Part shown: piece by piece, positions 34,482 to 56,730 of the stretch | Layout: each line of letters opens with the position of its first letter | How positions within the stretch are numbered: the stretch's first letter is position 1 | IMG/VR virus record: IMGVR_UViG_3300046787_000438 | Location: 1 to 64,000 of that record | Origin: a virus | Direction: 5' to 3' (one strand) | Length of the DNA stretch: 64,000 nucleotides | Notes under the pieces: model-generated | Database searches by the model: none | Told to the model about the DNA's origin: nothing | The model's input: only the letters and a program-made list of their open reading frames with translations | Made by a program: the position numbers and the translations under genes

Positions 34482-35462
34482 TTATACGCTGTCTATCCAG
34501 GTACCACTAGCAGCATCCCAGACTTTAACTGATGACTCTTTCCAGGTGCTATCTGCTTCATTATATATATATACAATGGATTCTTGCCACGTGGATGTTG
34601 CAGAATTATATACATGCACCCTCTGACCATCGTTAGCTACCACTAATGATAGTCCCGAGGTGTAAATAGTCCCACCATCACCTGATGCGCTTAGTACAAA
34701 GTTGTATGTGCCAGCTGACCCGTCTACAGGAGTACCAGTGAGTGCACCTGACGCAGTATTAATCGATATACCTGATGGTAGCGATCCGCTATATAGTGCG
34801 TAGCTAGACACGGCTGTCGCCGAGATACCATCTGAATACGCTGTATTTTCTTTCGCGCTAGCAGATATAGAGTTATCTAGCCATGTAGGGGTAGGCGGAA
34901 AATACGGAGGGAAGAACGGTGGGAAGAACGGGAAGAAAGGAGGGAAGAAGGGAGGGAAGAACGGGAAGAAAGGAGGGAAGAATGGTGGGAAGAACGGTGG
35001 GAAGAAAGGAGGGAAGAAAGGAGGGAAGAAGGGAGGGAAGAAAGGGAATGCTGGTGGTGCGCTAAATAGAGGTATAGTCTGAGCTACTGTAGACGTACCT
35101 AGCAGACCTCCTACTCCATCTGTCGCGGTTATAGTTAAGGTCGAGCTAGCAGATCCGTATGGAATATATCTAGTAAATTGTGAGAACACGGTTTGTGGGT
35201 CGCCATTAGCAAAGTTATATGACCAGTTGGCGGAGTTAGATGCTGATGCTGTACCTGTCGAGCTGCCAGATCTTGCTCCTGGAAGGCTCCACGATCTAGT
35301 TGCTATAGAGCTATTTGGAGTTCGAATTTCTCCAGCATTACGCTGAGCATAGGCGTAGATGTCAATTTGAGTGCCATCACCGACATCGTAGGTGTAAACG
35401 TCAACATAAAGCTTTACGGTAGTTCGTAAGCTAAATGAGGCCGATTTACTGTAGTACGCCAT
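34482..35462 (-). CDS. Virion-associated protein with a poly(PPFF) tract and an Ig-like (He_PIG-type) domain
   Basis: 55-aa PPFF tract; GSLPSGISI..SG.LTGTP Ig motif; C-terminal V.V.....W repeats. Confidence 0.8.
   Translation of the reverse strand: MAYYSKSASFSLRTTVKLYVDVYTYDVGDGTQIDIYAYAQRNAGEIRTPNSSIATRSWSLPGARSGSSTGTASASNSANWSYNFANGDPQTVFSQFTRYIPYGSASSTLTITATDGVGGLLGTSTVAQTIPLFSAPPAFPFFPPFFPPFFPPFFPPFFPPFFPPFFPFFPPFFPPFFPFFPPFFPPYFPPTPTWLDNSISASAKENTAYSDGISATAVSSYALYSGSLPSGISINTASGALTGTPVDGSAGTYNFVLSASGDGGTIYTSGLSLVVANDGQRVHVYNSATSTWQESIVYIYNEADSTWKESSVKVWDAASGTWIDSV
34893..35057 (-). repeat. Coding (PPFF/PFF)n repeat, about 14 units
   Basis: 12/9-nt units with synonymous variation; purine-rich on the + strand. 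Confidence 0.95.
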
Positions 35463-35475
35463 TTAAAATCAGACC

Positions 35476-36819
35476 TTAGGGACGCTTAATTAGTATGTCA
35501 CCATCGGACATGCCAGAGACTGGAAAGGTATTTTGAACGTATACCTTGTGTGAATTTATTTTTGTTGCATTAGAGGCAGTTCCTGTCAAATCCCCGATGA
35601 AAGTAGTTGCAGTGACATTGCCAGTCAAGGTTGGGTTACTTGCAAAAGATAAAGTGCCTGAGCTCAGGACTATTGGGCTAGTGACTGAATAGGTGCCTGC
35701 AGCCCCTGTACTACCAGTATCGCCCTTTGCGCCAGTATCGCCCTTAGGGCCAGTGTCACCCTGCGGGCCAACAATTTGACCGACATTGTGCCAAGGTAGT
35801 GCACCATCCCACACATATAAATCACCATCTGCATCAACAATATAAGCATCATTGACTAAATTATTAGATGAGGGTAGTGCAGATACCGTGGAAACAGAGC
35901 CCTTAAACGATATGCTTGTACCCTGAGGTCCCATTGCGCCTGTAGGCCCCATGATGGATCCTAGGTCATCATAAATTTCAGTGACTGGATTCCAAAAATA
36001 CAAGTGACCGTCTACTATGTACGCTGATCCTGGTTCATTTGCTAAAACAGAAAGATTGAACTCACTCAGAGTTGTATACGTTTGCACTATTTGAAAAGGT
36101 GCACCATTTAGTCCATCTGCACCAGGCTGACCAGTTGCCCCCGTGTCACCCTTAACTCCCTGCAAGCCAGTCGTACCAGTATTTCCCTGGATACCTTGAG
36201 GTCCAGTATCTCCAGTATCCCCCTTGACGCCTTGAATACCCTGAGCACCCTGAGGTCCAGTATCGCCTTGAATTCCCTGTTCGCCTTGGGGGCCTGTAAT
36301 TCCTTGAATACCTTGTAGACCTCTAGGCCCAAGTTCTCCCGCAGGGCCAGTATCTCCTCTAGCTCCCTGCGGACCAGTTAAACCTAAATCTCCCTGAGGC
36401 CCAGTGGGGCCAGTAACTCCTTGAAGCCCTTGAGGACCAAACTCTCCTTGAGGTCCCACCGAGCCAGTAGGCCCAGTATCACCCTGTGGCCCTACAATCT
36501 GGCCAGCGTTATCCCAGGAAGACCCGTTCCATACGTAGAGGTCTCCATCTTGGTTATTTACATATCCATCGTTTACAGAGGCACCTAAAGGCAGCTCTGA
36601 CACATCATTTACGGTACCCTTAAAAGTTAGCCCCACCCCCTGAGGCCCTTGAGGGCCAGTTGGCCCTGTTGGTCCACTGACTAGCTCAGTGGATAGTGCC
36701 TCCCAGTAATACCCATTCCAAGTCCAAGACTGAGTACTAGTAGCAAAAGCTCCACCTTGGGATGATGCTTCAAAAATATCGCCGATCTCGGGTGAGTTTG
36801 GAAAATCTAGAATGGTCAT
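35476..36819 (-). CDS. Collagen-like fibre protein
   Basis: G-X-Y stalks interrupted by GDLYVW..G.W.N.GQIVG modules. Confidence 0.9.
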
Positions 36820-36835
36820 TATATATATTCCTAGG

Positions 36836-37597
36836 TTAAATTTCTAATGCTTTAAGTCTACTAGCCAACTGATCCAATGCTTCGAATATGGTAGTAGGCG
36901 CTGGGCTCCAGTCAGATGACTGGGTGGGAGTGTAGTTAGAGCTCCCAGCAGCTCCAGTCGGGCCAGTAGGGCCGACTTCGCCTGCAATTGTCTCTACCCA
37001 AAAGTTGTCATAGTAAATTAGTAGCTTACCCTCTAGGCTGCTGTACCAAATCATGCCGTCTAGAGCTGGGCTAGGTGCTGAGTCCGAGATTAAAAAGGTT
37101 CCTGCCTGTCCAGTTGCACCCGTAGGACCCGTAGCTCCAGTTGGTCCAATTGGACCTAGATCTCCAGTATTGCCTAGATCGCCCTTAGGCCCTGTAGGCC
37201 CCATATCTCCATCAGTACCATCAAGCCCATCGTCTCCGCGATTGCCTTTGTCGCCTTTTAAACCTTGAGGACCAGTTGCTCCCTGAATACCCTGAGATCC
37301 AATTGGACCTGTCGCTCCGACTGCACCTTGTGGCCCAGTATCTCCAGTAGCTCCTTGCGCTCCAGTAGGTCCAGTAGGGCCAACTACTCCTGTTGGACCA
37401 GTCACACCTTGGATACCTTGAATTCCTCTAGGGCCTACGGGGCCAGTATCGCCTAACCCACCCTGAGGACCAGTTGGACCTATAGATGCTGTAGATGCAA
37501 GTACACCCCAAACGGCACCATCCCATTTCCAGGTTGTTCCTCCAGCTGAGTGAGTGTCATTCACTACTGGATTATTAGGAAAATTAATTGAAGACAT
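36836..37597 (-). CDS. Collagen-like fibre protein
   Basis: G-X-Y stalk of about 135 aa; N-terminal INFP..P module. Confidence 0.9.
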
Positions 37598-40458
37598 TAT
37601 GGAGTTCCTCCATCGATAGTGTCAGCCCAAATAAAGTCGTAATCATCTTCGCTAACTTTTATCAAGACTTGCCCAGCGGAACCGCCAGTAGGAAGTCCAA
37701 CTCCAGGTTGCCCAGTCGGTCCAGTCTCGCCTACGGCTCCAGTAGATCCCGTAGGGCCTATACCCCCCTGGGGGCCAACTTGCGTGTAAGTGACCTGCGT
37801 AGCCGTTAAAATTATAGATGGAATGTGCGGTGCAGGGGATCCAGTAGTATTGTGCAGCAATACTATGTTCGTATTATCGGTTGACCACATTAATTCATAG
37901 TAGTCTCCAGCGACTATCTCAAAGACATAGTTCCAGGCAACTACTATATACGGGTTATTCGTATTTACTGCGGTAGTTCCAGCCGAATCTGCCACGTCTA
38001 CGCCATTTTTACGTAGCCATATTCTTACAGTAGTTCCATTACCTCCGCCACCAGCATTGTGTAATTGGGCAGAAAATTGAATATTGTATACGCCATCACT
38101 ATTAAAAGTTATTCTGGTATTGCCAACTACTGTTACTCCGTTAGCTCCTCCGATCGAGCCATATTTAATGGCGTATGGCGTATTTACACTTCCAGCTACC
38201 TGGGTAGTCTCATCATAGAATGACCCCCAGTAAGCCACTGTTCCTCCTGCGCCAGGGGCTCCAGTTGGACCTATAGAGCCTGTAGCACCAGTTGGTCCCT
38301 GCGCTCCAGTTGGACCACTGTTACCTACAAACCCTTGAGCACCTTGAATACCTTGAATACCCTGTGCTCCAGTTGGGCCTATAGGTCCTGTATCTCCCGT
38401 AAGTCCTGCTTGTCCTGTGGGACCTGTTGGTCCAATATCTCCAGCATCTCCCTGAGCTCCAGTTGGGCCAGCTTCTCCCTGTGGTCCTGTGCTTCCTGTA
38501 TTACCTGCAGGTCCAGTCGTTCCTTGGATGCCTTGTTCCCCTGGAGCACCTTGATCTCCTTGATCACCTTTAAGACCCTGCTCACCTGCAGGCCCAGTTA
38601 TACCTTGAATACCCTGATCACCCTGAGCACCCTGAGGACCAGTAGGGCCAGTTGGGCCAACTTCACCCTGAGGCCCAGTTGGACCGATAGGCCCTTGCTC
38701 TGCAACTGCAACCTCTACCCAGAAACTGTCATAATACATGTAGAACTTAGCGTTGACTGAGTTAAACCAAGAGTCCCCTTCTGAAGGAGACAGCGGGGCA
38801 GTATCTGAAATAGTATAAGCACCCTGCGCACCTGTTGGTCCTGTAGGACCTAAGTCACCCTGGTTACCCTGCTGCCCCTGCGGACCAGTGGGCCCTTGAG
38901 GGAGCACTAAGTCGAGTATTTGATCTGGAGCCTCGCCTGAAATATAGGCAGAAGCTGATTCACCAGGGGCTGTAGTAGTTACGTCACCTATTGATAGCTC
39001 GTTAACGGCACCAGTTGGTCCTGTAACACCCTGAATACCTTGAATACCTTGCGCACCAGTCGGGCCAGTAGGGCCAGTAGGTCCTTGAATACCCTGTTCA
39101 CCCTGAGGTCCTACAATCTGACCAGCATCTACCCAGGAGTCGCCGCTCCAGACGTGCAGATTACCATCTTCATCGACAATGTAGGCATCATTAGTGTCTG
39201 CAGAATCTGGAAGGTCTGCTAGTACGGAAACAGATCCGACAAAATTAATGTTGGTGCCTTGAGGTCCAGTAGGGCCTGTAGATCCAGTCGGGCCTAGGGC
39301 TCCAGTTGGACCAGCTAAGCTTGCATTTACCTCTACCCAGTAGCCGTCGATATATAGATAAAATGCTGCACTAGTCGAGTCAAACCAGCCATCTCCTTCT
39401 TCTGGAGATTCTGGAGGTAGCGTAGAAACGGCAAAATTACCGTCTGGGCCAGTAGCACCAGTTGCGCCAGTCGGGCCAAGGGAGCCTGTCGGTCCTGTAA
39501 TGCTCAGGCCTGCCGCACCGCGAGAACCCGTTGGACCTGTTGCACCTGTGGGCCCTGCCTGACCTGCTGAACCAGTTGGTCCAACAATTGATAGACCTGC
39601 TAGACCCTGCGATCCAGTTGGCCCTTGAATACCCTGAGCACCCTGAGGGCCAGTAGCACCACGAGGTCCTGTAATACTTAGACCAGCTGAACCTTGAGAC
39701 CCAGTAGCACCAGTAGCACCAGTTGGTCCAGTGTCTCCCTTAGCTCCAGTAGATCCTGTTGCCCCGTTTGTACCGTCTCTACCAGCTGCACCTGTTGCGC
39801 CTGTAGGGCCAGCAGCACCAGTCGCGCCTGTAGCACCATTAGTGCCAGCTGCACCTGTCGGGCCTGTAGCACCGTCAACGCCATCGACACCATCAACACC
39901 ATCAGCGCCAGCGGCACCAGTTGGGCCTATAGCACCATCAACACCATCAGTGCCAGCTGCACCTGTCGGGCCTGTAGCACCTTGAATACCCTGTGCACCA
40001 GTAGGTCCTGTAATACTTAGACCTGCTAGACCTCGAGCACCCGTGGCACCTGTAGCACCAGTAGCACCGACTGTGCCAGTTGCACCAGTAGGTCCTGTAA
40101 TACTTAGACCTGCTAGACCTCGAGCACCCGTGGCACCAGTAGCACCGACTGTGCCAGTTGCACCAGTAGGTCCTGTAGCACCATCAATACCATCTGACCC
40201 ATCTGAGCCTCTTGCACCTGTAGCTCCTGTAGCACCCGTAGGACCTACCGAGCCCGTTGGTCCAGGCACGGTAGATGCTGCACCCGTGGCACCTGTAGCA
40301 CCAGTTGCACCTATCGCACCTGCTGGGCCTGTTGCACCTGTGGCACCTATCGCACCTGTGGGGCCTCCAGCTGGTCCTGCGGGACCAGTTGGTCCAGCGG
40401 GTCCCTGAGGTCCAGGACCTTTAATATCTACATATGCAAAGTTATCGGAGAGTGCCAT
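37597..40458 (-). CDS. Collagen-like fibre protein with a C1q/BclA-CTD-like C-terminal domain
   Basis: Extensive GPT/GAT repeats; C-terminal ITF...[23 protein letters not shown] beta-sandwich. Confidence 0.88.
38618..38685. repeat. 68-bp exact direct repeat shared with 33902-33969
   Basis: Identical nucleotide string. Confidence 0.9.
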
Positions 40459-40832
40459 TACTTAGTTACCTCAGGTCTCACAATAAATTTTCCTTGAATA
40501 ATTCTCGTAGTTTCACTAGTAGGTGATTCAACCTCTAGGTCATATACGTAAGATTTGGGCTCGTATGCAGCCATGTCCGCAGGTGGAATTAGAAGAGTCA
40601 CTGACCCTGCGGATTGATTTACTGTTAAATAGCCGTTTTGAGTAGTGTATTCGGCAACTATAGTGGTCGCTGGATCCCTGTTTTCCACGTCCCACGATCT
40701 GACTTGCATACGAGCCGTATACCCTGTAAGTGCGATAGGCTTACGCGCTGAGTTTTTGATACCAAAAACTTGGTGCACAGTCGACCCCTGGTCAGTGACC
40801 AGGTCGTGCACGTTGCCGCGAAAATAGCTCAT
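40458..40832 (-). CDS. Fibre adaptor-like protein (paralog of 56317-56679)
   Basis: Shared DQGST..GY.ARMQVR..Y.YDLE..QG.F.VR.EVT. Confidence 0.75.
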
Positions 40833-40868: not shown

Positions 40869-40877
40869 AATTTTACC
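40869..40877 (-). promoter_or_regulatory. GGTAAAATT promoter motif
   Basis: About 37 nt upstream of the adaptor gene. Confidence 0.5.
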
Positions 40878-40896: not shown

Positions 40897-41619
40897 TTAG
40901 TAGCCCCCAGTATTGACGCCAGACTTGAGAGGGTGCTCACCCTTGTCGAGCTGGTCCTTCCACTCTGCCTGCATCTCTTTTTGTTGAGCTCGGACGCCCT
41001 CTATTTCAGCTTCCCACTCCGCCATGCGTTCTTCAGTATAGGTAGATTCGGCGTAATCCCAGAAAGCCCCAATGGTATGGCGAGTCCCTGACTCTACGAC
41101 CTTTACTTCATGTACGTTACCAATGCCGCCAGGGAAAGTAATTAGCTGCCCTGTTTTTGGCTTGATAGTGATTGGGTGGTCTCGGTAATTCAAATCTCCA
41201 CCGACATAATCATCATTGATGTAGAGCAGGCATACGAGCTTGCTCTTTTCCCAAGCTGACCAGTTACCTTCCATATCTGTGTTGTCTGAGTGGAAAGGGG
41301 CAAACGCCCCTACTTGCCACTTCTGAGCATGAGATGAGACTGATTTGACTGGACGCTGGTGAGCGTCCTCAACTGCCGCCTTCATCCTGTCTGCAAGCTT
41401 ACCTAGGTAGTCAGTAGGTAGGCCGTACTTCTCTAGCAATGGGTCCTCTGGCATGATGCTCATACCGTATGACTCGAAGAACGCTGACATGCTCCAAGGC
41501 TGCTCGGGATCTTCAAAAAATTCTACGATTTTAGCGCATTCTTCGGAAGAGATGAAGTCCTCATATGAGATGATATCTTCTTTGTAGAGAGTCTTTTCAC
41601 CGAACTCAGTGTTTGTCAT
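40897..41619 (-). CDS. Fe(II)/2OG oxygenase (P4H-like fold, Arg-type)
   Basis: HSD ... Y.GG ... HEV-x-R(H+10). Confidence 0.9.
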   Translation of the reverse strand: MTNTEFGEKTLYKEDIISYEDFISSEECAKIVEFFEDPEQPWSMSAFFESYGMSIMPEDPLLEKYGLPTDYLGKLADRMKAAVEDAHQRPVKSVSSHAQKWQVGAFAPFHSDNTDMEGNWSAWEKSKLVCLLYINDDYVGGDLNYRDHPITIKPKTGQLITFPGGIGNVHEVKVVESGTRHTIGAFWDYAESTYTEERMAEWEAEIEGVRAQQKEMQAEWKDQLDKGEHPLKSGVNTGGY

Positions 41620-42085
41620 CTAAATCTCCTTCATAACCTAGCTCTACTAGGAATCTACTGCTGTCAAATCTTTGATTGTCTTTAGAAAATAGCTTAGCAA
41701 ACTCCATAGCTAAGTAGCGATGAGACTCTCCAGAAATTCTTCCAATTACCGACTTTAAAATCTGGCTCGTTTTATGGTAGTCGTCACGAACAAATGTACA
41801 CTCTCCACCACGTGGACGTCTAAGAACTTTAGTGTGTACCTTACCTGTAGGTTCATATAGTTCAATAGTCAAGAAATCTTTAGCAAATCCCCAGTCCGTG
41901 TAGGCTGCGTACCCATTGGCGGCGTTTATTGCATCACCATAGAAGTAGATAGACCTAGCTGGAGACTCTCCATCTCGGGCAATCGTAAGCATGTATGAGT
42001 CAGCAGTTTTACTTACCACTCGATTTCTATAGTCAGAAACCATGTCAACATGCTCTGTCTTTAATTCGCTCATTTGTCGGTCCAT
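41606..42085 (-). CDS. Hypothetical protein within the oxygenase cluster
   Basis: About 155-159 aa, overlapping both neighbours. Confidence 0.65.
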   Translation of the reverse strand: MDRQMSELKTEHVDMVSDYRNRVVSKTADSYMLTIARDGESPARSIYFYGDAINAANGYAAYTDWGFAKDFLTIELYEPTGKVHTKVLRRPRGGECTFVRDDYHKTSQILKSVIGRISGESHRYLAMEFAKLFSKDNQRFDSSRFLVELGYEGDLDDKH

Positions 42086-42933
42086 AGCTCCATGGTTGTA
42101 TACATACTGTTATCATAGATCTTTGGTCTAATGCCAATTCCAGTGAATTTACGTTGCCCAGCGGTGAAGCCACCCATTACAGAGTGGTACATTCTAAATA
42201 GATCGACTATTAAGATGTCGCCTTCTTCCCATAGCTGGGAATATCTAATCTCTAAATTATCATTTAAGTTAGTTTTTAGTACGTCTAGTAGGACATTTAG
42301 CCTATCTACTTGCTCTTCTGTTGGGGGCTTACCGTCCCAAAGGGCAAGTTCTGGCATTAAATAAGAGCCTCGGTCCGTCTCTACCCTAAGTATCTCTTGC
42401 TGAGTTAGAGGGTGCTTATCTACTACTTTAGTGTAGAAAGGTCCAGTGCCATGTGGTGTAGGTTTATCCCATTTCACTATAGATTTAGAAAGAAACTCTC
42501 TATCCTTATTGCTATATAACGCGTACAATTCAGCAGAATCTACGAATCTAGTAGTCCCCGAGCCAGCAGGTGCTGTAAAAGTTGTCATGTGCCACACTCC
42601 AGCGAGTATCGGGTAGACGTAGTATACCTGCTCTATATGCCAATCTAAAACATACTCTTCAGAGGTCTGATTATAGTCTTTATCTACATTGTCAGAGTGC
42701 CCGCCAGGGTATATAGACGTTTCTATAGTAGAGCGAGGAGCATCCGATGACACATTCCAGCCCATGGAGTTACCTAGAGTCTTTGTTAGCTCGACTTGAT
42801 CCTCGAGCGAGAAGTCTCCGCCCCTAATAACTAAAACGCCATCACGTTTAAATACTGCCTTAAGGGCGTCTACGTCACTAAAAAGATCTTCAACAGATGT
42901 AGCTTCAATTATCTTTATCGATTTTTCTGGCAT
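42070..42933 (-). CDS. TauD/TfdA-family Fe(II)/2OG dioxygenase
   Basis: GVLVIRG, WHIE, G.T.FVD, HP.T, W..GD.LI.D...MYH ... R. Confidence 0.85.
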   Translation of the reverse strand: MPEKSIKIIEATSVEDLFSDVDALKAVFKRDGVLVIRGGDFSLEDQVELTKTLGNSMGWNVSSDAPRSTIETSIYPGGHSDNVDKDYNQTSEEYVLDWHIEQVYYVYPILAGVWHMTTFTAPAGSGTTRFVDSAELYALYSNKDREFLSKSIVKWDKPTPHGTGPFYTKVVDKHPLTQQEILRVETDRGSYLMPELALWDGKPPTEEQVDRLNVLLDVLKTNLNDNLEIRYSQLWEEGDILIVDLFRMYHSVMGGFTAGQRKFTGIGIRPKIYDNSMYTTMELWTDK

Positions 42934-42936: not shown

Positions 42937-43812
42937 CTAAATCTCTTCATCTGGCTCGTAGCGGTCTTTTAGATTACCTGACTCTAAAAGCTGGTAGTAC
43001 TCTTTTAGAGTTACTCTCATTTTCATATATGGCTCCATAATTTTCAAATCATGGCGCTTCCTGCGTGAGATCTCTAGTTCTTCAAACTCGTCGCCGTACT
43101 TCTCCTTAAGCTCATGCCAGTCTGGAGTTCCTTCAAAGTTATACATCCAATAGAGTCTAGTTATATATTTAGGTGCTCCATAAATTCTTTTAACGGCGTG
43201 AAAATAAGGGTATCCTGAAGGAAATATTACTAAATCCCCCGCTTTGGGCTTATATTCAAACTCTCGTACAACTTCCCCGTCCTCGATCACGCGGTATGCA
43301 ATTTCTCCACCCTCGTAGTCGTCATTTGGGTATAAGACACCAGTTATGCCGAATTTATCTCCAGGACTGTCGGCAATCTCTGGCATATAATCAGAGTGAT
43401 AGTTCATGGTTAAATGTTCGTTACCATTTAGATTTTCATCAGGTATGTATCTAGCTAGGCCCCAGGGTTGGCATGACCAGTTGGTAAGCGATATCCCCGT
43501 GTGTTCGATATAAAATTTAGTTGCAAAGTGAAATGCCTTAGCCACCTCTAAAAAGTACTTGTCCGCTCCCTGCTCAGTTTCTGCTTTTTTGGCAACATCC
43601 TCCCACTCCTGTAGCGTCGGGAAGTGTGGGTGTGCTATAAAGGTATGTACTCTGCTATCTATTTGACGACCAAAACCGTACCAACCTCTCCAGTCGCCGT
43701 ATTCTTCATAGTAGTCGATATAGTCGTCAGGGTCGGACAGCACGTTGTGGAATACTATTACATTGTCATCTAGTATCTCGACATTTGGATTGTCTTTAGT
43801 GTAGTCTTCCAT
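42937..43812 (-). CDS. Fe(II)/2OG oxygenase, prolyl 4-hydroxylase-like (Lys-type)
   Basis: HSD, YEGGE, HAVKRIYGAPK. Confidence 0.88.
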   Translation of the reverse strand: MEDYTKDNPNVEILDDNVIVFHNVLSDPDDYIDYYEEYGDWRGWYGFGRQIDSRVHTFIAHPHFPTLQEWEDVAKKAETEQGADKYFLEVAKAFHFATKFYIEHTGISLTNWSCQPWGLARYIPDENLNGNEHLTMNYHSDYMPEIADSPGDKFGITGVLYPNDDYEGGEIAYRVIEDGEVVREFEYKPKAGDLVIFPSGYPYFHAVKRIYGAPKYITRLYWMYNFEGTPDWHELKEKYGDEFEELEISRRKRHDLKIMEPYMKMRVTLKEYYQLLESGNLKDRYEPDEEI

Positions 43813-47440: not shown

Positions 47441-48222
47441 TATGCGTCTGTATCTTCGTAGAATTCTGGACGATGATACTTTTCAGAGAAATCCAACATG
47501 GTGACCATTGAGTACTTGACACCTGACTTCACTGGCATAGCGCGATGAGGGTACATGAAATTTGATGGGAAGATATATACATCTCCAGCGCGAGCCTTTA
47601 TTTGTGCATTTTGCAATCTAAAAAATAGCTCGCCGCCTTCGTAATCATCGTTAGGGAACGCAACTAGTGATACCACACAGTTATACGAGTATCCATGGTC
47701 GTGGTGCTCCTGGAAATGCTGGCCTTCACCGTATCGGACATAGTTAGTGGCCTCCCAGTAGCGTAGCTCTCCGACATTGTAGTGACGAGTGTAATCCTTA
47801 ACTACCTGAAGCTCTCTATATGTTACATCATCTGCTAGCTTCTTTAGAATCTCCCCCGCTTCAGAATTATCGTGCTCTATGTCGGTCTTCTTATATTTAA
47901 AATCAACACAATCGCGATACTCTGGCATCTTCATTTGATAGCCAACCATAGCTTCACGCCAGTCGTAGTTGTTGGATGGGTCGTCTACGACAGACTCTAG
48001 TCGCTTGATGATATCCATCTCTTTAGGAAGAACGTCCCTATAAACCCAAATGCCGCTACCAGGAATCACTTCCTGAGATGACGACCATGTCTGCTCATCT
48101 AAGGTGTACCACTTAGCTAATCGATTTTGTAGATTTTGCTGCTCTTGCTTACCTTTTTGGTCAATAGCGGCGTCTGCTTTTTGCTTTTCCATTAGCTCTT
48201 CTGGAGTCAAGTCCTGTGCCAT
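47440..48222 (-). CDS. Fe(II)/2OG oxygenase, prolyl 4-hydroxylase-like (Lys-type)
   Basis: HHD, YEGGE, HRAMPVKSGVK. Confidence 0.9.
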   Translation of the reverse strand: MAQDLTPEELMEKQKADAAIDQKGKQEQQNLQNRLAKWYTLDEQTWSSSQEVIPGSGIWVYRDVLPKEMDIIKRLESVVDDPSNNYDWREAMVGYQMKMPEYRDCVDFKYKKTDIEHDNSEAGEILKKLADDVTYRELQVVKDYTRHYNVGELRYWEATNYVRYGEGQHFQEHHDHGYSYNCVVSLVAFPNDDYEGGELFFRLQNAQIKARAGDVYIFPSNFMYPHRAMPVKSGVKYSMVTMLDFSEKYHRPEFYEDTDA

Positions 48223-48230: not shown

Positions 48231-48962
48231 TTAGTACTTTAGTTTGTAGTCTTCGACAACTTGAGAAACTCTTTGGTTTACACCGTCTCTATCGTGATAG
48301 TCAGTCATTACAACTACGGCATATTTGGTACCCTCTATCATTTCTTTAGAGGCATGTTCATAAATAAATGTAGAGGGGAATATTGCGATATCTCCCTGTT
48401 TCGGCTTTAAGTCTACACCGAATCTAGGGAACCAGAGCTCTCCACCTTCGTAATTATCATTTAGATATATAACGGCAGATATTGTTGCTACATATGTTGG
48501 CCCGTGATCAGCGTGAATTCTAAACTGGGTACCAGCCCCCTCGTACTTTACAAAATTAAACGCTTCGTAAGCTCGGATTCCTACGCCCCAGTAGGCTCCG
48601 TAGTCGTCGACGCACATACGTAACTTCTGAAAAATTTCTTCGTGGAGATCGTAAAGAGCGGAGTTCTCGGGGGTTCTAGGCCCTAAGTTGTTACTCGAAA
48701 CCTTAAAGTCCTGAGCTTTTCTGGCGTAGTTATCCACCTCAGCGGAGTTAGAAACTTTGGCATTGCTCCACTCAAACTGAGTGCTGCCATCTAAATTAGC
48801 CTCTAACTGAGATATGTACCTATCGCAATCGGCTGGTGATATAGCGTTTCTATAGACGTTTATACCCAGCGCTGGGTTGAGGACTGACATGTGCCCTAGT
48901 TGGCGGTCTGCCATTCTAGAGGATGCAGTCTCTGATCTATCTTTAGTGAACCATATATTCAT
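48231..48962 (-). CDS. Fe(II)/2OG oxygenase, prolyl 4-hydroxylase-like (Lys-type)
   Basis: HAD, YEGGE, HASKEMIEGTK. Confidence 0.9.
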   Translation of the reverse strand: MNIWFTKDRSETASSRMADRQLGHMSVLNPALGINVYRNAISPADCDRYISQLEANLDGSTQFEWSNAKVSNSAEVDNYARKAQDFKVSSNNLGPRTPENSALYDLHEEIFQKLRMCVDDYGAYWGVGIRAYEAFNFVKYEGAGTQFRIHADHGPTYVATISAVIYLNDNYEGGELWFPRFGVDLKPKQGDIAIFPSTFIYEHASKEMIEGTKYAVVVMTDYHDRDGVNQRVSQVVEDYKLKY

Positions 48963-48983: not shown

Positions 48984-49016
48984 AAAAAGAAAAGCGGCTA
49001 GATTTCTCTAGCCGCT
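48984..49016 (-). terminator. Rho-independent terminator after the PPFF/FN3 gene
   Basis: AGCGGCTAGA-GAAA-TCTAGCCGCT followed by TTTCTTTTT on the - strand. Confidence 0.85.
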
Positions 49017-49031: not shown

Positions 49032-49925
49032 CTACTTATCGTCGTCTTCCTTCAACTCTTCCCATGATTCCCATGGGATTGAGTAAGCGAAGTAAGGAGG
49101 GAAGAAAGGAGGGAAGAATGGTGGGAAGAACGGGAAGAAAGGAGGGAAGAATGGTGGGAAGAACGGTGGGAAGAAAGGAGGGAAGAACGGGAAGAAAGGA
49201 GGGAAGAATGGTGGGAAGAACGGGAAGAAAGGAGGGAAGAAGGGAGGGAAGAACGGGAAGAAAGGAGGGAAGAATGGAGGGAAGAACGGTGGGAAGAATG
49301 GTGGGAGCGTAGTTACGTTGCCTGACAGATCTGATGCAGCGGAATTACCGTTAGCATTAGTTGCAATAACGCTGTACTGCTGCGCTGTATTCATTTCCTG
49401 CGGGACAGTTATTGATGTAACAGTTGAAGCAACTGTATTTCCCTTAGCATCTGTTGATGCCCAGGTGTAGCTAGAAATAGCTTTTCCACCGTCATTTGGT
49501 GCTGTCCAAGAGACAGAGTCTTGGTCTGGCACTGTTGATGATGCTGTAGGAGCTGCGGGCTTTGCTGGAACTGTTGTTACAGTTCTAGCTGGTGCGGCCG
49601 TGCCTGGTGAGGTACCAGCCGCATTAGATAGTTTGACAGTAGCAGTGACTGAAGAATTGCTGGCTAGCCCTGTGACTGTAGCTGTATATGTACCGCTAGC
49701 TGGTGTGGGAAGGGCCCCACTACCTATGGTCGTACCAGCCGCATTACTTACTATATAGTTAGTGGGTGCAGGGGATAGAGCATTAATTGTCCAGGTAATT
49801 GTAAGTGCACCGTCATTGAAGGCACGGTCAGTGCCTACATCAGTTGCAGTTACATTTTCTGGGGCCATAGGCTCCAGGAAGTCATTTTGAGCAGCGGAAC
49901 GGCCGCCAGCCTCTTTCTTTGCCAT
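49032..49925 (-). CDS. Two-FN3-domain protein with a C-terminal poly(PPFF) tract and acidic tail
   Basis: FN3 motifs (AP.NVTA..ITW; VSWTAPNDGG..I.SY..YSV.ATN.NG.S); 72-aa PPFF tract. Confidence 0.88.
   Translation of the reverse strand: MAKKEAGGRSAAQNDFLEPMAPENVTATDVGTDRAFNDGALTITWTINALSPAPTNYIVSNAAGTTIGSGALPTPASGTYTATVTGLASNSSVTATVKLSNAAGTSPGTAAPARTVTTVPAKPAAPTASSTVPDQDSVSWTAPNDGGKAISSYTWASTDAKGNTVASTVTSITVPQEMNTAQQYSVIATNANGNSAASDLSGNVTTLPPFFPPFFPPFFPPFFPFFPPFFPPFFPFFPPFFPPFFPFFPPFFPPFFPPFFPPFFPFFPPFFPPFFPPYFAYSIPWESWEELKEDDDK
49089..49304 (-). repeat. Coding (PPFF/PFF)n repeat, 19 units
   Basis: 15 four-residue plus 4 three-residue units; synonymous codon variation. Confidence 0.95.
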
Positions 49926-49943: not shown

Positions 49944-52424
49944 CTAAGCAGTCAGGTCGCCGTAGACGATCCAGGTGTTAGCAGCTCTCTTTAATAGTGT
50001 AGCAGATGACCAGCGGGTGCGTAGTTTCAGTCCAGGGGTTGCGTTAACGGTAACTCCGTCAGCTCCAGCAATAGTCACTTGGCCAGTATTTGTCTGAATA
50101 ATGTCGATGCTAGTACCGACTGGGTAGGCTACAGATGAATCTAGAGGGATCGTGATAGTTGTTGCTGATGTATTTGACACCTCGATGATATCATCACGTA
50201 GCCCTAAGTTATCTAGGGTATAGCTAGCGGTCTTATAGATGAAACTAGAGATTGAAGGAACGCCAGCTGAACTCTGCTGAGTTCCGTCATTGAAGGCTAC
50301 AAACCCAGTAGAAACCCCTGCGTTGGCTATAACATTTTGAGCTTCGATGCTTGCAAAAGAGAAAGATGCATCAGCTGTGTCAATGTAAAGTGACTCGTCT
50401 GGCTCTGGAACATAATTGTCAAAGAACTTAAATCGGCCATCAGTAGCATCTCGGAACATGCCAGTGTGTGCATAGGTACCGCTAGCATAACGTCCAGCGG
50501 CCCAACCTAGGTCTGGATCGGTACTAACTCTAGCTCTAGCAGCTCCACCAGTGAGGTAGGTGTCAGTTACTGTACTTGCTACAGTAAATGTATTCGCTGT
50601 CACCTCTAAAATCTGTGCGCCAGGTGCTGCTATATCAAATGAGCTAGGAGAGGAATCCGTTATGACAACATAGTGTCCAGCAGCATACCCGTGGTTTGCA
50701 ATAGTCTCGTATACAACGTAGGTACCGTCCCCTATAGCACTATTAATTCCGTTTAGGCCAGGGTTATTCAGGTAAATCATGTTGTCTTGTACAGCAAGAT
50801 TTGCTGTGTTAACGGTGGTTGTTGTACCTACAACATATAGATCACCAGTGATAGTGACATTTGTTGCCTCTACATCTCCAGTAAAAATTGCACCATCTAG
50901 ATTTGCCTTGGCATCTAGTGCACCCTGGGTAGCTATAGATACTGGCTTGTCAGCATCTGAAGTGTTGTCAACATCACCAAGGCCGACCATTGACTTTGTG
51001 ATACCAGAGGTTGTACCAGTAAAGGTAGCATTTGCAGTAGGTGCTTTAGCGTCAATCTGGGTCTGAATAGCTGAAGTAACACCATTCAAATAGCCGATCT
51101 CTACGTTAGAGGTGTCACCAATTGAAGTAGTTGATGGTAGCACTACGGTACCAGTGAATGTCGGTGCAGCTAATGGTGCATAAGTAGTTGCTGCAGTAGC
51201 AGATGCAAGTTTTGCATCTAACTGAGTCTGGATAGCTCCAGTAACCCCATTTACGTAGCTGAGCTCGGTCCCAGATACGTCACCAATTGAAGTAGTTGAT
51301 GGTAGCACTACGGTACCAGTGAAGCTAGGACCTTCTAATTGAGCATAAGCTTCTAGGTCCGAGGCAATAACCAGAGTGCTAGTATCTGCAATGCCGTGAA
51401 CATTGGTGGTATCATCTGAGTGCGCTGCCAAGATAGATGTAGTAACTAGATCTGCAGTATTGGCAATACCGTGAACATTGGTGGTGTCAACGTTGTGGGT
51501 ATTAATTGCTGAATTCAAGTCAGCTGTCACCACTAGGTCAGCAACGCTAGCGATACCGTGGACTCCAGAAGTTAGAGCTTCGTGACTACTTAGTGTATTT
51601 GCAACGTCTGAAGCTGCGTCTAAGGCACCAGCAATATCAGTCTGATATGCCAAGTTTGCAGTATTAGAGATACCATGAACGTTTGTATCCAAGTTCTCGT
51701 GGTCGTTCATTAGGTTGTCAGCATATGATTTACCAACAAAATCCAAGCTGTTATAGTGTGTAACCCCGTCACCAACACGCACAAAACCAGCGTGGTCGCT
51801 TTCGATGTATAAAGTATTTGCGGCAGTTACTACGTTTGCAGTTGCAAAATTAGCAGCAGTGTCGATTACAAAGTTAATTTTGCCACCAAGCGAAGTAGCC
51901 ATAGTGGTTGCAAAATTAGGGTCATCAGAAAGAGCTGCTGCAAGCTCATTTAGAGTATTTAAGGTTCCTGGGGACGAATCTATTAGATTAGCAACAGCGG
52001 TATCAGTGTATGAAGCGGCATTAGCCTGAGCCGCATTTGCCTTGTTCTGAGCACCAGTCTGAGTTTCTAGAGCTGCAGTGTCTGCAATTCCATGTACATT
52101 TGTAGCGTCATCTATATGAGCGTCCAATGTTGATAGCCCAGCTGTGACAGTATTGCCGAAGTTAGCGTCGCCACCGATAGACGCAGCTAGCTCGGCTAGG
52201 GTGTCCAAAGTCTCTGGGGCAAGACCCACTACATCAGCAAGCGCATTGTCTACATATGACTGGCTAATTGCGCTATATGCAAGTGCACCCCAGTTATCAG
52301 TAGCATTACCAATCTTAAATGCACCAGTATCTGACTCATAACCTAATTCACCAGCTGCTAGTACTGGATTGGCGCTTGCCCATTCTGCAGCGGTGCCGCG
52401 TCTGAACTGAATTCTAATTGCCAT
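49944..52424 (-). CDS. Fibre protein with an Mtd_N/hyaluronidase-type N-terminal domain
   Basis: IQFRRGTAAEW..ANPVL..GE.G.E.DTG.FKIG; APETLDTL.ELA and NVHGI repeats. Confidence 0.85.
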   Translation of the reverse strand: MAIRIQFRRGTAAEWASANPVLAAGELGYESDTGAFKIGNATDNWGALAYSAISQSYVDNALADVVGLAPETLDTLAELAASIGGDANFGNTVTAGLSTLDAHIDDATNVHGIADTAALETQTGAQNKANAAQANAASYTDTAVANLIDSSPGTLNTLNELAAALSDDPNFATTMATSLGGKINFVIDTAANFATANVVTAANTLYIESDHAGFVRVGDGVTHYNSLDFVGKSYADNLMNDHENLDTNVHGISNTANLAYQTDIAGALDAASDVANTLSSHEALTSGVHGIASVADLVVTADLNSAINTHNVDTTNVHGIANTADLVTTSILAAHSDDTTNVHGIADTSTLVIASDLEAYAQLEGPSFTGTVVLPSTTSIGDVSGTELSYVNGVTGAIQTQLDAKLASATAATTYAPLAAPTFTGTVVLPSTTSIGDTSNVEIGYLNGVTSAIQTQIDAKAPTANATFTGTTSGITKSMVGLGDVDNTSDADKPVSIATQGALDAKANLDGAIFTGDVEATNVTITGDLYVVGTTTTVNTANLAVQDNMIYLNNPGLNGINSAIGDGTYVVYETIANHGYAAGHYVVITDSSPSSFDIAAPGAQILEVTANTFTVASTVTDTYLTGGAARARVSTDPDLGWAAGRYASGTYAHTGMFRDATDGRFKFFDNYVPEPDESLYIDTADASFSFASIEAQNVIANAGVSTGFVAFNDGTQQSSAGVPSISSFIYKTASYTLDNLGLRDDIIEVSNTSATTITIPLDSSVAYPVGTSIDIIQTNTGQVTIAGADGVTVNATPGLKLRTRWSSATLLKRAANTWIVYGDLTA

Positions 52425-52445
52425 CTGTCTTATTCCTTATATACT

Positions 52446-52673
52446 CTAGAAGCTGGAGGGGTTTCCGCCGTCGTAATTGATGTTGTACGAGCTAGCCGCA
52501 TTCCCACCATCGACGTTTGTGATGTCTGAAGCTGTCATAGAAACCCATGCTGACCCATCGTAGGTATACATAGCTCCTAAGTCAGATCTAAAGAAAAGGT
52601 CACCAGAAGATGCCTGAACTGGATACTCTGTTCCGTTAACGATGTTAATCGGGGAGAGAAACTTCTTTGCCAT
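52446..52673 (-). CDS. Small fibre-linker protein
   Basis: MAKKFL N-terminus, GDLFF..Y.YDG..W, C-terminal DGG motifs; RBS AAGGAAAAGG. Confidence 0.7.
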   Translation of the reverse strand: MAKKFLSPINIVNGTEYPVQASSGDLFFRSDLGAMYTYDGSAWVSMTASDITNVDGGNAASSYNINYDGGNPSSF

Positions 52674-52703
52674 TTAAGTGACCTTTTCCTTAGTCTGTCT
52701 AAA

Positions 52704-52712
52704 TATTTTACT
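52704..52712 (-). promoter_or_regulatory. AGTAAAATA promoter-motif variant
   Basis: About 31 nt upstream of the ATG at 52673. Confidence 0.4.
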
Positions 52713-52713
52713 A

Positions 52714-55113
52714 TTAACCGATTACTACTACACGGTAGCTGTCTGCTGAAACAGTAGACGAAGCAATCCATGAGATAGTCACCGCGTTGGTGCTTGTCAC
52801 CATTACATCAGCCTCTACTAGCGAGTTATCGGCTAGATCGCGGATCTGAACGGTTACATCAAGAGTACCAATACCGTGAGTCACGGTCCAGGTGACAACA
52901 CCAGCCGACGGGGTCAAGCTTGAGTTATTCTCTGAGTACTTAGTAGTTGCAGCAAGGTTAGCGCGTGCACCAGCAGCAGTTGTTGCTCCAGTACCACCGT
53001 TAGCAATTGCTACGGTTCCGTTCACATTGTCAGCATTTCCAGAAATGTCACCAGAGATGTCTTCACCAGGAATAGATGCTACAGATGTAAGGAATCCACC
53101 TTCACCTCCACCAACTAGGTATGAACCTGAGGTGAAGAAGGTGTTTCCAGTACCACCGTGTGATACAGGGATGGTAGAGCCATTCCAGACACCAGTTGTG
53201 ATGGTTCCAACAGTATCGATCGAGGTCTGACCAGCATAGTCAGAAGCAATCGAGATACCGTTTACATCAACAGTAATTCCAGATCCAGCGTCAGCCGAGA
53301 TTGAAGTACCAGAGATATTTACACCACTACCTGCAGTGTACTGACCAGCTGCAGAGAACTGAGTCCAGGTAGCGCCAGACATCCCCGAGTAGGCCGTTAC
53401 AATGTATCCGCGGGCCTGGTTGGTTCCTAGCTCAACGAATACAAAGTCGCCAACTTCAGGAGTTTGCTGATCGTCAGCTGCAATGAGCATTGACATGGCA
53501 GGCCCAGCCGCTGAGTCGTATACGTAGATTCCGTTATACAGACCCATGCCGCCAGCTTGGTTCTTAACAAGAACGCGGTCGCCATCTTGCAGTGTTATTC
53601 CGTCAATAGCACTATCGCGGAATGGAGCACTTAGAGAGCTAGTTGTAGCTACCTTTACAGAATCTTTAACATTCAGACCCTGTGAGGCGGCCGAGATCTC
53701 GCCACGAAGAGTAGAGAGAACTACGTCATCTGCAGCATTGAAGTCGGAGGTTAGGCTGGTCTCGAGTGCATCTAGGCCAGAGGTTAGGTCAGAAGCTACG
53801 TTGCTGATGTCAGTGGTTAGACCAGAAGCTACAGTGTTTGTGTAGTCCTTCGAGGTCTGAATCGCATTGCTGATGTCAGTTCCAAGGCCGCTAACAGAGC
53901 TAGTAACGGTGTTAGATAGGTCTGAAATGTCTCCAGCTAGACCCTGATCTGCAAGTTCGAAAGCTGAAGTTACGTTAGTACCAATAGCATTTGCGTAGTT
54001 CTTGTATGCAGTCTCAGTTGCTGAGGACGCGCTTGAAACCGCTGAGTCAGTGTAGTCATTTGCATTAGATTCAGCAGTTGCAGCTGAGCCAGAAGCGTCA
54101 TACCACGAGTCAGTAGCATTTCGATCGATTTCTACCTCATTGGTAGAGCCAATCTTAAGGCCATTTCCAGTATCGACGTTCAGTACGCTGTTAGTTACGG
54201 TCAGACCGTCGCCAGATGAGGTAGCAAAGATACCTGCTACAGCGTTGTCGATATCGCTCTGTAGTCCAGTAGCTACACCATCAACGTATGAGACGGCATT
54301 GCTGTAAGCAACTCCTGCAGCATCGGCGATATCGGTAGATAGGCCAGAGGCTACGGTGTTTGTGTAGTCCTTTGCATCCGACAAAGCCGAGGCAGCTGCG
54401 CCTGATGCATCGTAAGTCCCTGAGGTAACCGAGATGGTGTCAGAATCAATTGTGATTCCTGTACCTGCAGTTAGAGTATTCTGCTTGCCAGAGATCATGG
54501 CGGCAATGTCAGTTGCATAGTTCGGGTTATCTGCAAGTGCAGCAGCGAGCTCATTTAGAGTGTTCAGAAGTGCAGGTGCACCATCAACTAGGTTAGCTAC
54601 CGCAGTGTCGGTGTAGTCATTGGCATCTGAAAGAGCAGAGGCAGCAGCACCAGCAGCATCGTAGTTAGATGCTAGGCCATCTGCGTAGCTCTTAGCGTTA
54701 TTTTCTGCAGTTGTTGCAGCACCAGCAGCATCGTAGTTAGATGCTAGGCCATCTGCGTAGCTCTTAGCGTTATTTTCTGCAGTTGTTGCAGCACCAGCAG
54801 CATCGTAGTTAGATGCTAGGCCATCTGCATAAGCTTCTGCATTTGCCTGAGCAGTTGAGGCAGATCCAATTGCATCGTAAGTATTAGCTAGATCAAGTGC
54901 AGTGATTGCAGCATTGATTGCTTCGGTAACATTACCGCCCGCAGCAAGGGCAACCCAGGACGTACCGTCATAGTATTTTAGAGCTGAATCTACGGTGTTG
55001 TAGTAGATCTGACCTACAACAGGCGAAGAGGGAGCTGTTGCAAGGTTTTGAATCCTTGCATTCTGAAGCTCGTTTTTATTGAGGTTCAGGTTCGTTAAGA
55101 ACTGCTTTGCCAT
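52714..55113 (-). CDS. Fibre protein (coiled-coil/beta repeats)
   Basis: MAKQFL N-terminus, YDAAGAA repeats, [21 protein letters not shown]; C-terminal TH.IG domain. Confidence 0.85.
54644..54828. repeat. Perfect 72-bp tandem repeat (about 2.6 copies)
   Basis: Unit encodes [24 protein letters not shown]; copies start at 54644, 54716 and 54788. Confidence 0.9.
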
Positions 55114-55123
55114 TTGTTATTCC

Positions 55124-55498
55124 TTAGGAGAGGTATGCGGTGCCAGAAATGGCAACCGAGAAGGTGATTGTTAGGTTATTTGTGTCTTGGTGCTCGATAG
55201 CTCCCTCTACAACATCGCCAGAACTCATAAAGATCGTGACAGCGGGGTAGAAGCCTAGGTTGTGTTCAATTGTCCAGACGGTACTATCTGCACCCTGTAC
55301 GTGAGAGTACGACACTAGAGGAATGAGCGCCTCTGAATCTACCCCTGTGTATGGAAGAGTGTTCCATGTATTGGTACCAGTACCGATTTTCATCTTATTG
55401 GTATCAATTTCAACGCCAAGTTCTCCCTTGGCAAGAGTCGGGTTAGCTGCGGTCCAGTTGGCCGCGGTGTCATTTCGTAGTTGTATTTGAACTGCCAT
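55124..55498 (-). CDS. Mtd_N-domain fibre-linker protein
   Basis: IQLRNDTAANW...NP.L..GE.G.E.DT.K.KIG plus a C-terminal WTI.HNLG domain. Confidence 0.8.
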   Translation of the reverse strand: MAVQIQLRNDTAANWTAANPTLAKGELGVEIDTNKMKIGTGTNTWNTLPYTGVDSEALIPLVSYSHVQGADSTVWTIEHNLGFYPAVTIFMSSGDVVEGAIEHQDTNNLTITFSVAISGTAYLS

Positions 55499-55519
55499 AA
55501 TTACGCCTTAAGTTTATTG

Positions 55520-56317
55520 CTAGAATTCGCTAGCTGACCCACCATTAATTGTACCTGAAATGCTAGAGGCTGAGATTCCTATCTCTAGCGTTGATTTGTT
55601 TATCCACTTAGAAATTTCAGGATCATATATAAGAACCTGACCGTTGCCTAGATCGGTAAGTTGTACGTCTGTAAGCTCTGTCATTGCTACGTCTTGTACT
55701 GCTTCGGGGTCTACCCATTCGGTAGCATAATTTGCCGAGCCAGTCTTTCTTAGTATCTGACCAGCAGTACCTCCAGTCGGAACTCCTGGGCCTGCTGCAC
55801 CAGTAGGACCAGTGGCACCTGGTATACCCGCATCTCCAATAGGAGAGACCATGAAAACAAGGTTGTCGTTATAGGTCCAAGATCTAGCTGTACCATCTAT
55901 GTAAGCAAGATCTAAAGTTCTCCAACCAGAAGACATTGACTGCTCTAAAACGTAGTATCTAGAGAACTTTCTAGTATTCACTGCATCTTGAATAGTTATA
56001 ACTGCCTTATAGCTGTTCGTCGATGTGATAGCAGCATCTAGTAATCCCGATTGACTATCAGTCTGACTGTCAGTCTCTGATATATAAAGAGCTGTAGCCG
56101 AGAAAATACTGGAAGCGTTGAAAGCAAGATGCCCAGCGCCTGGGTTAGCTGAGGCATAAGTATTTAAGAACTTGTACGGTGCAGACAGACCTCCCGAGAC
56201 TCCAGCATCGCCCTTGTCACCCTTAGGACCCGCGGCACCTTGAGGGCCAGACGCCGCTACTGTAACTTGACGGGCATGCTTACCTGCTGTAACGGAGCTA
56301 ACTGTGTATCCAGCCAT
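55520..56317 (-). CDS. Fibre base protein with short collagen segments
   Basis: Short G-X-Y runs, PTGGTAGQIL.K motif (shared with 37597), LTDV, C-terminal INGG. Confidence 0.75.
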   Translation of the reverse strand: MAGYTVSSVTAGKHARQVTVAASGPQGAAGPKGDKGDAGVSGGLSAPYKFLNTYASANPGAGHLAFNASSIFSATALYISETDSQTDSQSGLLDAAITSTNSYKAVITIQDAVNTRKFSRYYVLEQSMSSGWRTLDLAYIDGTARSWTYNDNLVFMVSPIGDAGIPGATGPTGAAGPGVPTGGTAGQILRKTGSANYATEWVDPEAVQDVAMTELTDVQLTDLGNGQVLIYDPEISKWINKSTLEIGISASSISGTINGGSASEF

Positions 56318-56679
56318 TATCTGGTCACCTCTGATCTAACTGCAAAGTTGCCTTGTAAAATTTTGTATACGAATAAATCTGCAGATGGCGCGACTAGCTC
56401 TAAATCGTATAAATATATTCCTTCAGAGATTGAACCCATAGTTACATCATCTACAAATAGCGCGATACTGCCATCAGTTGTCCCCAGTTCGATACCGCCA
56501 TTTTCAGTCGTAAGCTCTAGAATCAGAGACTCTCCAGAGTTATTCGACCTAACCTGCATGCGAGCTTTATATCCAGTGAATGCTATAGGCTTTTTGGCTG
56601 GATCTTTGTAGTAGATGATGCGCGAAAGTGTCGAGCCTTGATCGGCTACGATATTGTACAGTGCTGCTGGGGCGCTCAA
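56317..56679 (-). CDS. Fibre adaptor-like protein (paralog of 40458-40832)
   Basis: DQGST..GY.ARMQVR..Y.YDLE..QG.F.VR.EVT. Confidence 0.75.
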   Translation of the reverse strand: MSAPAALYNIVADQGSTLSRIIYYKDPAKKPIAFTGYKARMQVRSNNSGESLILELTTENGGIELGTTDGSIALFVDDVTMGSISEGIYLYDLELVAPSADLFVYKILQGNFAVRSEVTR

Positions 56680-56721
56680 CTGGACTCATTTCGGCTTGGA
56701 GAGTGGGAATACAGTTCACTT

Positions 56722-56730
56722 AATTGTACC
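56722..56730 (-). promoter_or_regulatory. GGTACAATT promoter motif
   Basis: About 43 nt upstream of the adaptor gene, in a divergent intergenic region. Confidence 0.45.

Follow-up and report, generated by a model that had tools for sequence, protein, structure and literature searches.

In the genome of an uncultured lake phage we found a gene for a protein with a long proline- and phenylalanine-rich tract, (PPFF/PFF)n, standing immediately upstream of a block of 11 genes, seven of which encode 2-oxoglutarate (2OG) oxygenases of family PF13640. The window in which both were studied is the first 64 kb (64,000 nucleotides, nt) of the IMG/VR record IMGVR_UViG_3300046787_000438, a complete phage record of 152,411 bp with direct terminal repeats that encodes a tape-measure protein, a DNA polymerase, a primase and a ribonucleotide reductase (RNR). 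The block lies between two fibre gene cassettes, A upstream and B downstream, each of which ends in a tract gene. All cassette and block genes are on the minus strand, at the coordinates already given in an earlier sequence-only reading of the window, and the tracts, the paralogous adaptor genes, the terminator and the 11-gene block are present as that reading had described them. The tract genes, the terminator and the block are as follows (aa, amino acids):

49032-49925, minus strand: PPFF-A protein with a conserved N-terminal peptide, a "2xFn3"-type region, a 72-aa tract and an acidic 18-aa end
49089-49304, minus strand: (PPFF/PFF)n tract A, 72 aa, residues 208-279, unit pattern 4444344344344443444
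48984-49016, minus strand: intrinsic terminator with a 10-bp stem (49016-48993) and a T-run, the strongest in the region
48231-48962, minus strand: oxygenase (PF13640), H150-A-D152, H203, K213
47440-48222, minus strand: core oxygenase (PF13640), H173-H-D175, H226, K236; model like protein prolyl hydroxylases
46673-47440, minus strand: DUF6065 protein, type a (PF19541), with invariant Arg, His and Cys; model with a dUTPase-like fold
45952-46692, minus strand: DUF6065-like protein, type b (phrog_7084), remote paralogue of type a
45260-45937, minus strand: core oxygenase (PF13640), H135-A-D137, H199, R209 (Arg type)
44472-45257, minus strand: oxygenase (PF13640), H127-F-D129, H208, K218
43823-44470, minus strand: oxygenase (PF13640), H134-R-D136, H187, K197
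42937-43812, minus strand: oxygenase (PF13640), H139-S-D141, H205, K215
42070-42933, minus strand: TauD/TfdA-type dioxygenase (PF02668), accessory
41606-42085, minus strand: 159-aa protein without a match in the Pfam scan, accessory
40897-41619, minus strand: oxygenase (PF13640), H110-S-D112, H170, R180 (Arg type)
34482-35462, minus strand: PPFF-B protein with a 139-aa N-domain, a 49-aa tract and a He_PIG Ig domain
34899-35045, minus strand: (PPFF/PFF)n tract B, 49 aa, residues 140-188 of the protein encoded at 34482-35462

Both tracts mix PPFF with PFF units and finish in PPFFPPYF. They contain no Gly and are not collagen; tract A is also free of Lys and Arg. Phe codons within tracts A and B are TTC in 61 cases and TTT in one, versus 103 TTC and 113 TTT in the adjoining genes, and Pro codons within the tracts are mixed. 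In a relative of 96-98% identity the unit pattern of the tract is unchanged. The varied Pro codons and the identical pattern in this relative indicate that the tract sequence is kept at the protein level.

Co-occurrence of tract genes and oxygenase genes

Viral contigs with PPFF tracts were collected without regard to homology, by a degenerate DNA pattern that spells three PPFF units and matched at least 120 contigs. The 47 PPFF-pattern records of at least 16 kb were tested for co-occurrence, with 46 records chosen by a (Gly-Pro-x)6 collagen pattern as controls; a few contigs are in two samples. PF13640 genes were present in 43 of the 47 PPFF records, mostly in 6-11 copies (at least 6 in 32 records), versus 9 of the 46 controls, where there were at most 3 copies (Fisher p ~5e-13 for any copy and ~1e-13 for five or more). 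DUF6065 is encoded by at least 584 viral contigs. All 80 DUF6065 loci examined contained 2-11 oxygenases, and a Pro-aromatic tract gene was found in 83 of the 84 loci with at least 4 kb of upstream sequence (both samples pooled). Those DUF6065 loci that apparently lacked PPFF either had a tract of variant type, for example (PPxFFA)n, or were truncated upstream. Co-occurrence of this kind had been named in advance, in the sequence-only reading, as the check on a link between tracts and oxygenases, and both counts bear it out. In all, more than a hundred related phage contigs share the pairing.

Synteny was near-universal as well. The tract gene was on the same strand as DUF6065 and upstream of it in 116 of 118 cases, with a median gap of 1.6 kb, and an oxygenase gene lay within 1 kb of the tract gene in 63 of 108 PPFF loci. 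The core of the cluster consists of a 47440-type and a 45260-type oxygenase on either side of DUF6065a, with DUF6065b present in ~75% of the loci. A homologue of the 826-aa Mtd_N fibre protein (49944-52424) directly precedes 104 of 129 tract genes (81%), and the conserved order of the module is fibre gene, tract protein, oxygenase/DUF6065 operon, all in one direction. Adjacency of tract and oxygenase persists in the divergent layout of locus L029 and was found for 63 of 64 tract carriers of the "2xFn3" type (our label for an N-terminus like that of PPFF-A, in which Pfam detects one fn3) and for 22 of 26 other mid-size carriers. The 48231-type oxygenase occurred in 62 of 96 PPFF loci versus none of 15 hexad loci, a weak co-variation that may be an artefact of best-hit assignment.

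Cultured phages gave no match to the block with megablast or to PPFF-A with tblastn, for which the low-complexity filter probably masks the tract, and the core oxygenases were only ~28% identical to any protein encoded in cultured-phage records. A search of cellular genomes returned matches in four contigs of metagenome-assembled genomes only (2.7-17.4 kb), which gave no cellular context. The literature searched contained nothing on PPFF plus phage; it describes the Syn9-type array only, with no description of the tract or of its linkage to an array.

Enzymes and DUF6065 proteins of the block

Pfam assigned seven block genes to PF13640 (30.9-48.8 bits, cut-off 27), one to TauD and one to DUF6065, next to which there is a remote DUF6065 paralogue; one gene had no match. 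The sequence-only reading had counted seven enzymes of the prolyl 4-hydroxylase (P4H) fold, one TauD-type enzyme, one gene of no assigned family and two DUF6065-like genes; the second of the latter is a remote relative without a Pfam match. As established for collagen, algal and Bacillus prolyl 4-hydroxylases, which act on polyproline-II-like peptides, it had cited an HxD..H motif with a Lys ten residues after the distal His. The iron triad was confirmed in all seven oxygenases and does not vary among the 35 homologues compared for the 45260 type and for the 47440 type, but the 2OG-binding basic residue at +10 is Lys in five of the seven only and Arg in those at 40897 and 45260. Collagen hydroxylases likewise have an HxD...H core and a basic residue at +10.

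The best PDB sequence matches of the block enzymes were Bacillus anthracis P4H (3itq, 5hv0), prolyl 3-hydroxylase 1 (P3H1; 8k0e) and LH3/mimivirus L230. A profile of the 45260 type matched P3H1 and the B. anthracis P4H with E ~7e-7, and the 47440 protein showed weak matches to P4H, PiuC and lysyl hydroxylases. The AlphaFold model of the 47440 protein, the only oxygenase model tested, reached a pLDDT of 90.7; its best 50 Foldseek neighbours were all protein prolyl hydroxylases, including PHD2, algal P4H with (Ser-Pro)5, vCPH and the B. anthracis P4H. From their sequences and this model, the block oxygenases look like intact protein-prolyl-hydroxylase-like enzymes. The TauD gene (42070-42933; 72.8 bits, cut-off 27) had no PDB sequence match at E 0.01 and occurs in about a tenth of the related loci.

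As the best explanation for this module we suggest, with moderate confidence, that the block enzymes hydroxylate prolines of the (PPFF)n tract. The functional link between tract and oxygenases that the sequence-only reading had proposed is upheld in its statistical association and in the prolyl-hydroxylase-like character of the enzymes; the chemistry, meaning the substrate and the modified residue, is what we infer.

The DUF6065a gene (46673-47440) scored 85 bits against the PF19541 cut-off of 26.6. The type b gene (45952-46692) is by hhalign a remote relative of DUF6065 (87.6%, E 3.5e-6), and both genes match phrog_7084. The DUF6065a model (pLDDT 84.7) has a dUTPase-like fold by two structure-comparison methods: the top 22 VIA rows all belong to the dUTPase/dCTP-deaminase superfamily (Z up to 10.7, with a root-mean-square deviation of 6.2 over 131 aligned residues), and the top 50 Foldseek neighbours are all dUTPases. 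Type b homologues were found in Halorubrum tailed phage 7 (HRTV-7) gp38 (L411:6851-7741), which adjoins thymidylate synthase and PolB, and in cyanophage S-RIM4 (L412:6998-7792), where nrdA/nrdB adjoin. Neither of these two loci had a tract; the HRTV-7 locus had no oxygenase match and the S-RIM4 locus one weak match ~3 kb from the homologue. The neighbours of these distant homologues hint at a nucleotide-related ancestry of the 45952-46692 family. For DUF6065a, tblastn gave no match in cultured phages, and the literature searched contained nothing on DUF6065.

One alternative is that the cluster acts on nucleotides or DNA, with DUF6065 as a dUTPase- or dCTP-deaminase-like protein and the oxygenases as base or sugar oxidases. 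The fold of the DUF6065a model and the gene neighbours of the type b homologues would agree with this, as would the G-I-I-D-x-D and Y-A-Q of type b, which resemble dUTPase motifs III and IV (by eye only). However, no dUTPase was matched by sequence in profile searches with either DUF6065 type, the oxygenases belong to the peptide-hydroxylase class and not to AlkB or TET/JBP (Tet_JBP matches were sub-threshold only), and the constant upstream tract gene would be left unexplained. We consider an action of the cluster on nucleotides or DNA very improbable; DUF6065 itself may have a nucleotide-related role.

Hydroxylation of the tract and alternative substrates

If prolines of the tract are the target, the tract protein, a fibre-associated carrier, would be made in excess over the enzymes, owing to the terminator that follows its gene. 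Polymerases reading through this terminator would yield the oxygenases, which would then hydroxylate the (PPFF)n prolines post-translationally. Separate paralogues may each take a different proline position or carbon. The fibre-riding protein, which would be part of the virion, would thereby gain a stiffened tail of the polyproline-II-like kind with better solubility. The sequence-only reading had seen the terminator as a caveat, which made the link positional and not co-transcriptional. The terminator is real, but this caveat was too strict. There are only ~21 nt between the T-run and the ATG of the next oxygenase gene, which leaves no room for a promoter, so that transcription of the oxygenases has to pass the terminator. 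The first oxygenase gene directly adjoins the tract gene in most relatives. The terminator is probably leaky and would act as an attenuator that sets a high substrate:enzyme ratio. Its conservation is only partial, as terminators were found behind 34 of 160 tract genes versus 37 of 663 oxygenase genes.

Other parts of the earlier proposal found less support. Nothing pointed to hydroxylation of Phe, and a priming of glycosylation found no support, as no glycosyltransferase was present in the cluster of the window or in those of ~190 related loci. A role of the tract proteins as tips of virion appendages is suggested by gene position only, directly behind a fibre gene for most tract genes.

Chlorovirus PBCV-1, a eukaryotic virus, has a single prolyl 4-hydroxylase (vCPH) and proline-rich PAPK-like repeat proteins of its own. 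As in the window, a P4H-class enzyme and Pro-rich repeats as plausible substrates are encoded by one virus, and vCPH (PDB 5c5t) turned up as a structural neighbour of the 47440-type model. The window differs from PBCV-1 in that it belongs to a phage and has seven paralogues together with DUF6065, PPFF repeats and tight gene linkage.

No substrate has been known for the 2OG oxygenase arrays of aquatic phages since they were described in 2010 (PMC3037559, PMC2938197). In the window, the gene of a candidate substrate was found directly upstream of such an array. In Syn9 (gp41-gp54), tandem dioxygenases together with a dUTPase-fold protein with a conserved cysteine were seen as a metabolite-type neighbourhood (Iyer, Abhiman, de Souza, Aravind 2010, PMC2938197). 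The dUTPase-like fold of the DUF6065a model agrees with that account. The Syn9 array resembles the block of the window in having at least five divergent tandem 2OG dioxygenases and a dUTPase-fold protein with a conserved Cys, and in its position directly after the tail-fibre/fibre-assembly genes gp32-gp39 (L413:3069-25145). Syn9 gp43 (L413:18055-18843) also matched the DUF6065a and DUF6065b profiles (E 1.7e-6 and 5.5e-10, respectively). In contrast, two tryptophan halogenases and a JmjC/MINA enzyme are part of the Syn9 array, for neither of which there was a Pfam match among the 11 block genes, whereas the window has two DUF6065-type genes, TauD and a tract protein immediately upstream.

In keeping with the proposal of Iyer et al. 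for Syn9, the array could make or tailor a small peptide or a secondary metabolite. This neighbourhood type (PMC2938197) and the glutathione peroxidase, short-chain dehydrogenase (SDR) and TauD genes among the accessory genes of the relatives' clusters would be in favour of it. However, no Pfam match to halogenase, non-ribosomal peptide synthetase, ATP-grasp or transporter families was found in the scanned block genes or the scanned representatives of the relatives' accessory genes, and the tract protein is the sole constant non-enzyme partner, which makes a metabolite pathway improbable. Further oxygenases are also among the accessory genes. Glutathione peroxidase or SDR genes are present in some clusters (e.g. 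L081:5671-6267, L156:11403-12068), and the former may protect against the peroxide that arises when oxygenases turn over uncoupled.

For the oxygenases of cyanophages, 2OG-linked roles and DNA repair have been proposed (Sullivan et al. 2010, PMC3037559). On this model the enzymes would serve host physiology, as a 2-oxoglutarate drain or in oxygen sensing, but the 5-11 divergent paralogues, the fixed order of DUF6065, the position in a late fibre module and the link to the tract would all be left unexplained, and we give this the least credence.

The oxygenases might also have host proteins or other proteins of the virion (Mtd_N or collagen-like fibres) as targets, the tract gene being a mere conserved neighbour where the fibre module ends. 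In Syn9 and S-RIM2 oxygenase genes follow tail-fibre genes without a tract, and EF-Tu and HIF are substrates of known relatives of the enzymes. Because most tract genes follow a homologue of 49944-52424, fibre and tract are moreover confounded. We nevertheless regard this as unlikely, since fibre homologues occurred without oxygenases in 13 adaptor-conditioned loci, PF13640 genes were rare in the collagen-pattern records, collagen open reading frames were present in only 12 of 108 PPFF loci, and the immediate upstream neighbour of the operon is the tract gene and not the fibre gene. Collagen was rejected as the main substrate: the known collagen hydroxylases act on Gly-X-Y collagen, whereas collagen-like genes are not a conserved partner of the block, and collagen-pattern controls and the collagen-fibre cassettes of relatives were mostly without oxygenases.

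Several points weigh against hydroxylation of the tract itself. The prolyl-hydroxylase fold supports the enzyme class and leaves the substrate unfixed, and DUF6065 combines a dUTPase-like fold with distant homologues beside thymidylate synthase or RNR. Tract B is 5.4 kb away from the oxygenase block, and oxygenase adjacency was rarer for short (9 of 16) and very large (1 of 4) tract carriers. Many of the loci are related to each other, and the counts are therefore not independent events. In the adaptor-based sample, relatives had both tract and oxygenases or neither; since the positives are the nearest relatives, they are not independent evidence and may go back to a single evolutionary event. 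Finally, a scan of Syn9 and S-RIM2 found no Pro-aromatic tract, and the Syn9 array without a tract argues that such arrays have other targets at least there. If tract hydroxylation is nevertheless true, self-directed protein hydroxylation would be seen in a phage for the first time, and a new class of repeat proteins would be defined. Tract hydroxylation would also give a function to DUF6065 and possibly show a tuning of fibre-associated proteins for adhesion.

Some tract proteins carry further domains. About one fifth of the relatives' tract proteins have, past the tract, a ~160-aa domain that starts with C-I-x-E-D-T-L and often ends with H-N-K-stop. Its profile matched a bacterial intein-like domain (BIL/Hint; PDB 2lwy) with E 1.9e-10, followed by mini-inteins, and in Pfam the Hint families came under their cut-offs. 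Examples are L131:7859-8374, L186:3706-4221 and L041:6875-7390, with Cys (or Ser) as first residue. As it lies at the extreme C-terminus, with a few residues behind it at most, the domain could bring about cleavage, but splicing is improbable. Around half of the tract proteins overall stop no more than 12 residues past the tract, often in PPxFK, an ending common in proteins that lack the domain, and self-cleavage of the intein-like domain would leave a C-terminal tail of this kind. The Hint domain may release or activate the C-terminus of the tract in relatives. It is absent from both tract proteins of the window, as PPFF-A ends 18 aa after the tract and PPFF-B continues with the He_PIG Ig domain. 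Another group of tract proteins, in relatives such as L020, L029, L031, L037 and L116, ends in a short Cys-rich tail past the tract.

A more far-reaching version of tract hydroxylation, which we consider rather doubtful, is a protein-material pathway in which position-specific hydroxylases, perhaps together with the DUF6065 pair, would modify (PPFF)n so heavily that a rod or an adhesive is formed on the tail fibres. The DUF6065 pair would perhaps act on the new hydroxyls or hold the substrate. In relatives, the intein-like domain would make a thioester at the tract end, from which the tract could come free or form a covalent bond with another molecule.

Fibre cassettes and further genes of the window

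The remaining features of the two cassettes, and the collagen-like gene downstream of them, are:

56723-56730, minus strand: -10-like word GGTACAAT before cassette A, a motif enriched in the window
56317-56679, minus strand: adaptor A, 120 aa (phrog_1084; weak match to tail-fibre assembly)
55520-56317, minus strand: fibre-like protein, 265 aa (PHROG tail and tail-fibre matches)
55124-55498, minus strand: protein with Mtd_N head, 124 aa (PF18454, 56.7 bits)
52714-55113, minus strand: fibre or virion structural protein, 799 aa (PHROG)
49944-52424, minus strand: Mtd_N tail-fibre protein, 826 aa (Pfam, PHROG)
40870-40877, minus strand: -10-like word GGTAAAAT before cassette B, a motif enriched in the window
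40458-40832, minus strand: adaptor B, 124 aa, paralogue of adaptor A
35476-40458, minus strand: three collagen-like fibre genes (953, 253 and 447 aa; PF01391)
29770-34422, minus strand: collagen-like protein, 1550 aa, outside the span of the sequence-only reading, with a third GGTAAAAT at 34453-34460

The adaptors at 56317-56679 and 40458-40832 are paralogous with 39% identity (E 2e-30). The motif GGTA(A/C)AAT had been noted ahead of the two cassettes. It is indeed found 38-51 nt upstream of both (at 56730 and 40877), but also before the 1550-aa collagen gene (at 34460), and it occurs 11 times in the window versus 3.3 expected, a count reached in none of 100 shuffles. This window-wide enrichment indicates a general -10-like, promoter-like word of the phage and no signature of the cassettes. 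Collagen Gly-X-Y repeats (PF01391) were above the Pfam cut-off in four genes between 29770 and 40458. The 1550-aa protein has a long Trp/Ser/Thr-rich repeat C-terminus that is DUF6242-like, and with its own GGTAAAAT word the gene forms a third promoter-headed fibre unit.

PF13640 genes were also found outside the block, at 62720-63310 in the window and at 65.3-73 kb, 89.2 kb and 104.6-105.3 kb of the genome; they are not of the core types, and for the gene at 62720-63310 there was, in addition, a Tet_JBP match below threshold. At 21733-23536, ~17-19 kb from the oxygenase block, the window encodes a GT32-like (DXD) and a GT2-TPR glycosyltransferase back to back, the two glycosyltransferase genes of the window, for which no connection to the PPFF tracts was found. 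Two genes of the WhiB family, a mark of actinobacterial phages, are located at 21296-21487 and 60943-61161 and indicate an actinobacterial host. A tmRNA gene (tag ANSRSAFALAA) was found at 61838-62715, with genes for tRNA-Met, tRNA-Asn and tRNA-Gly on its flanks.

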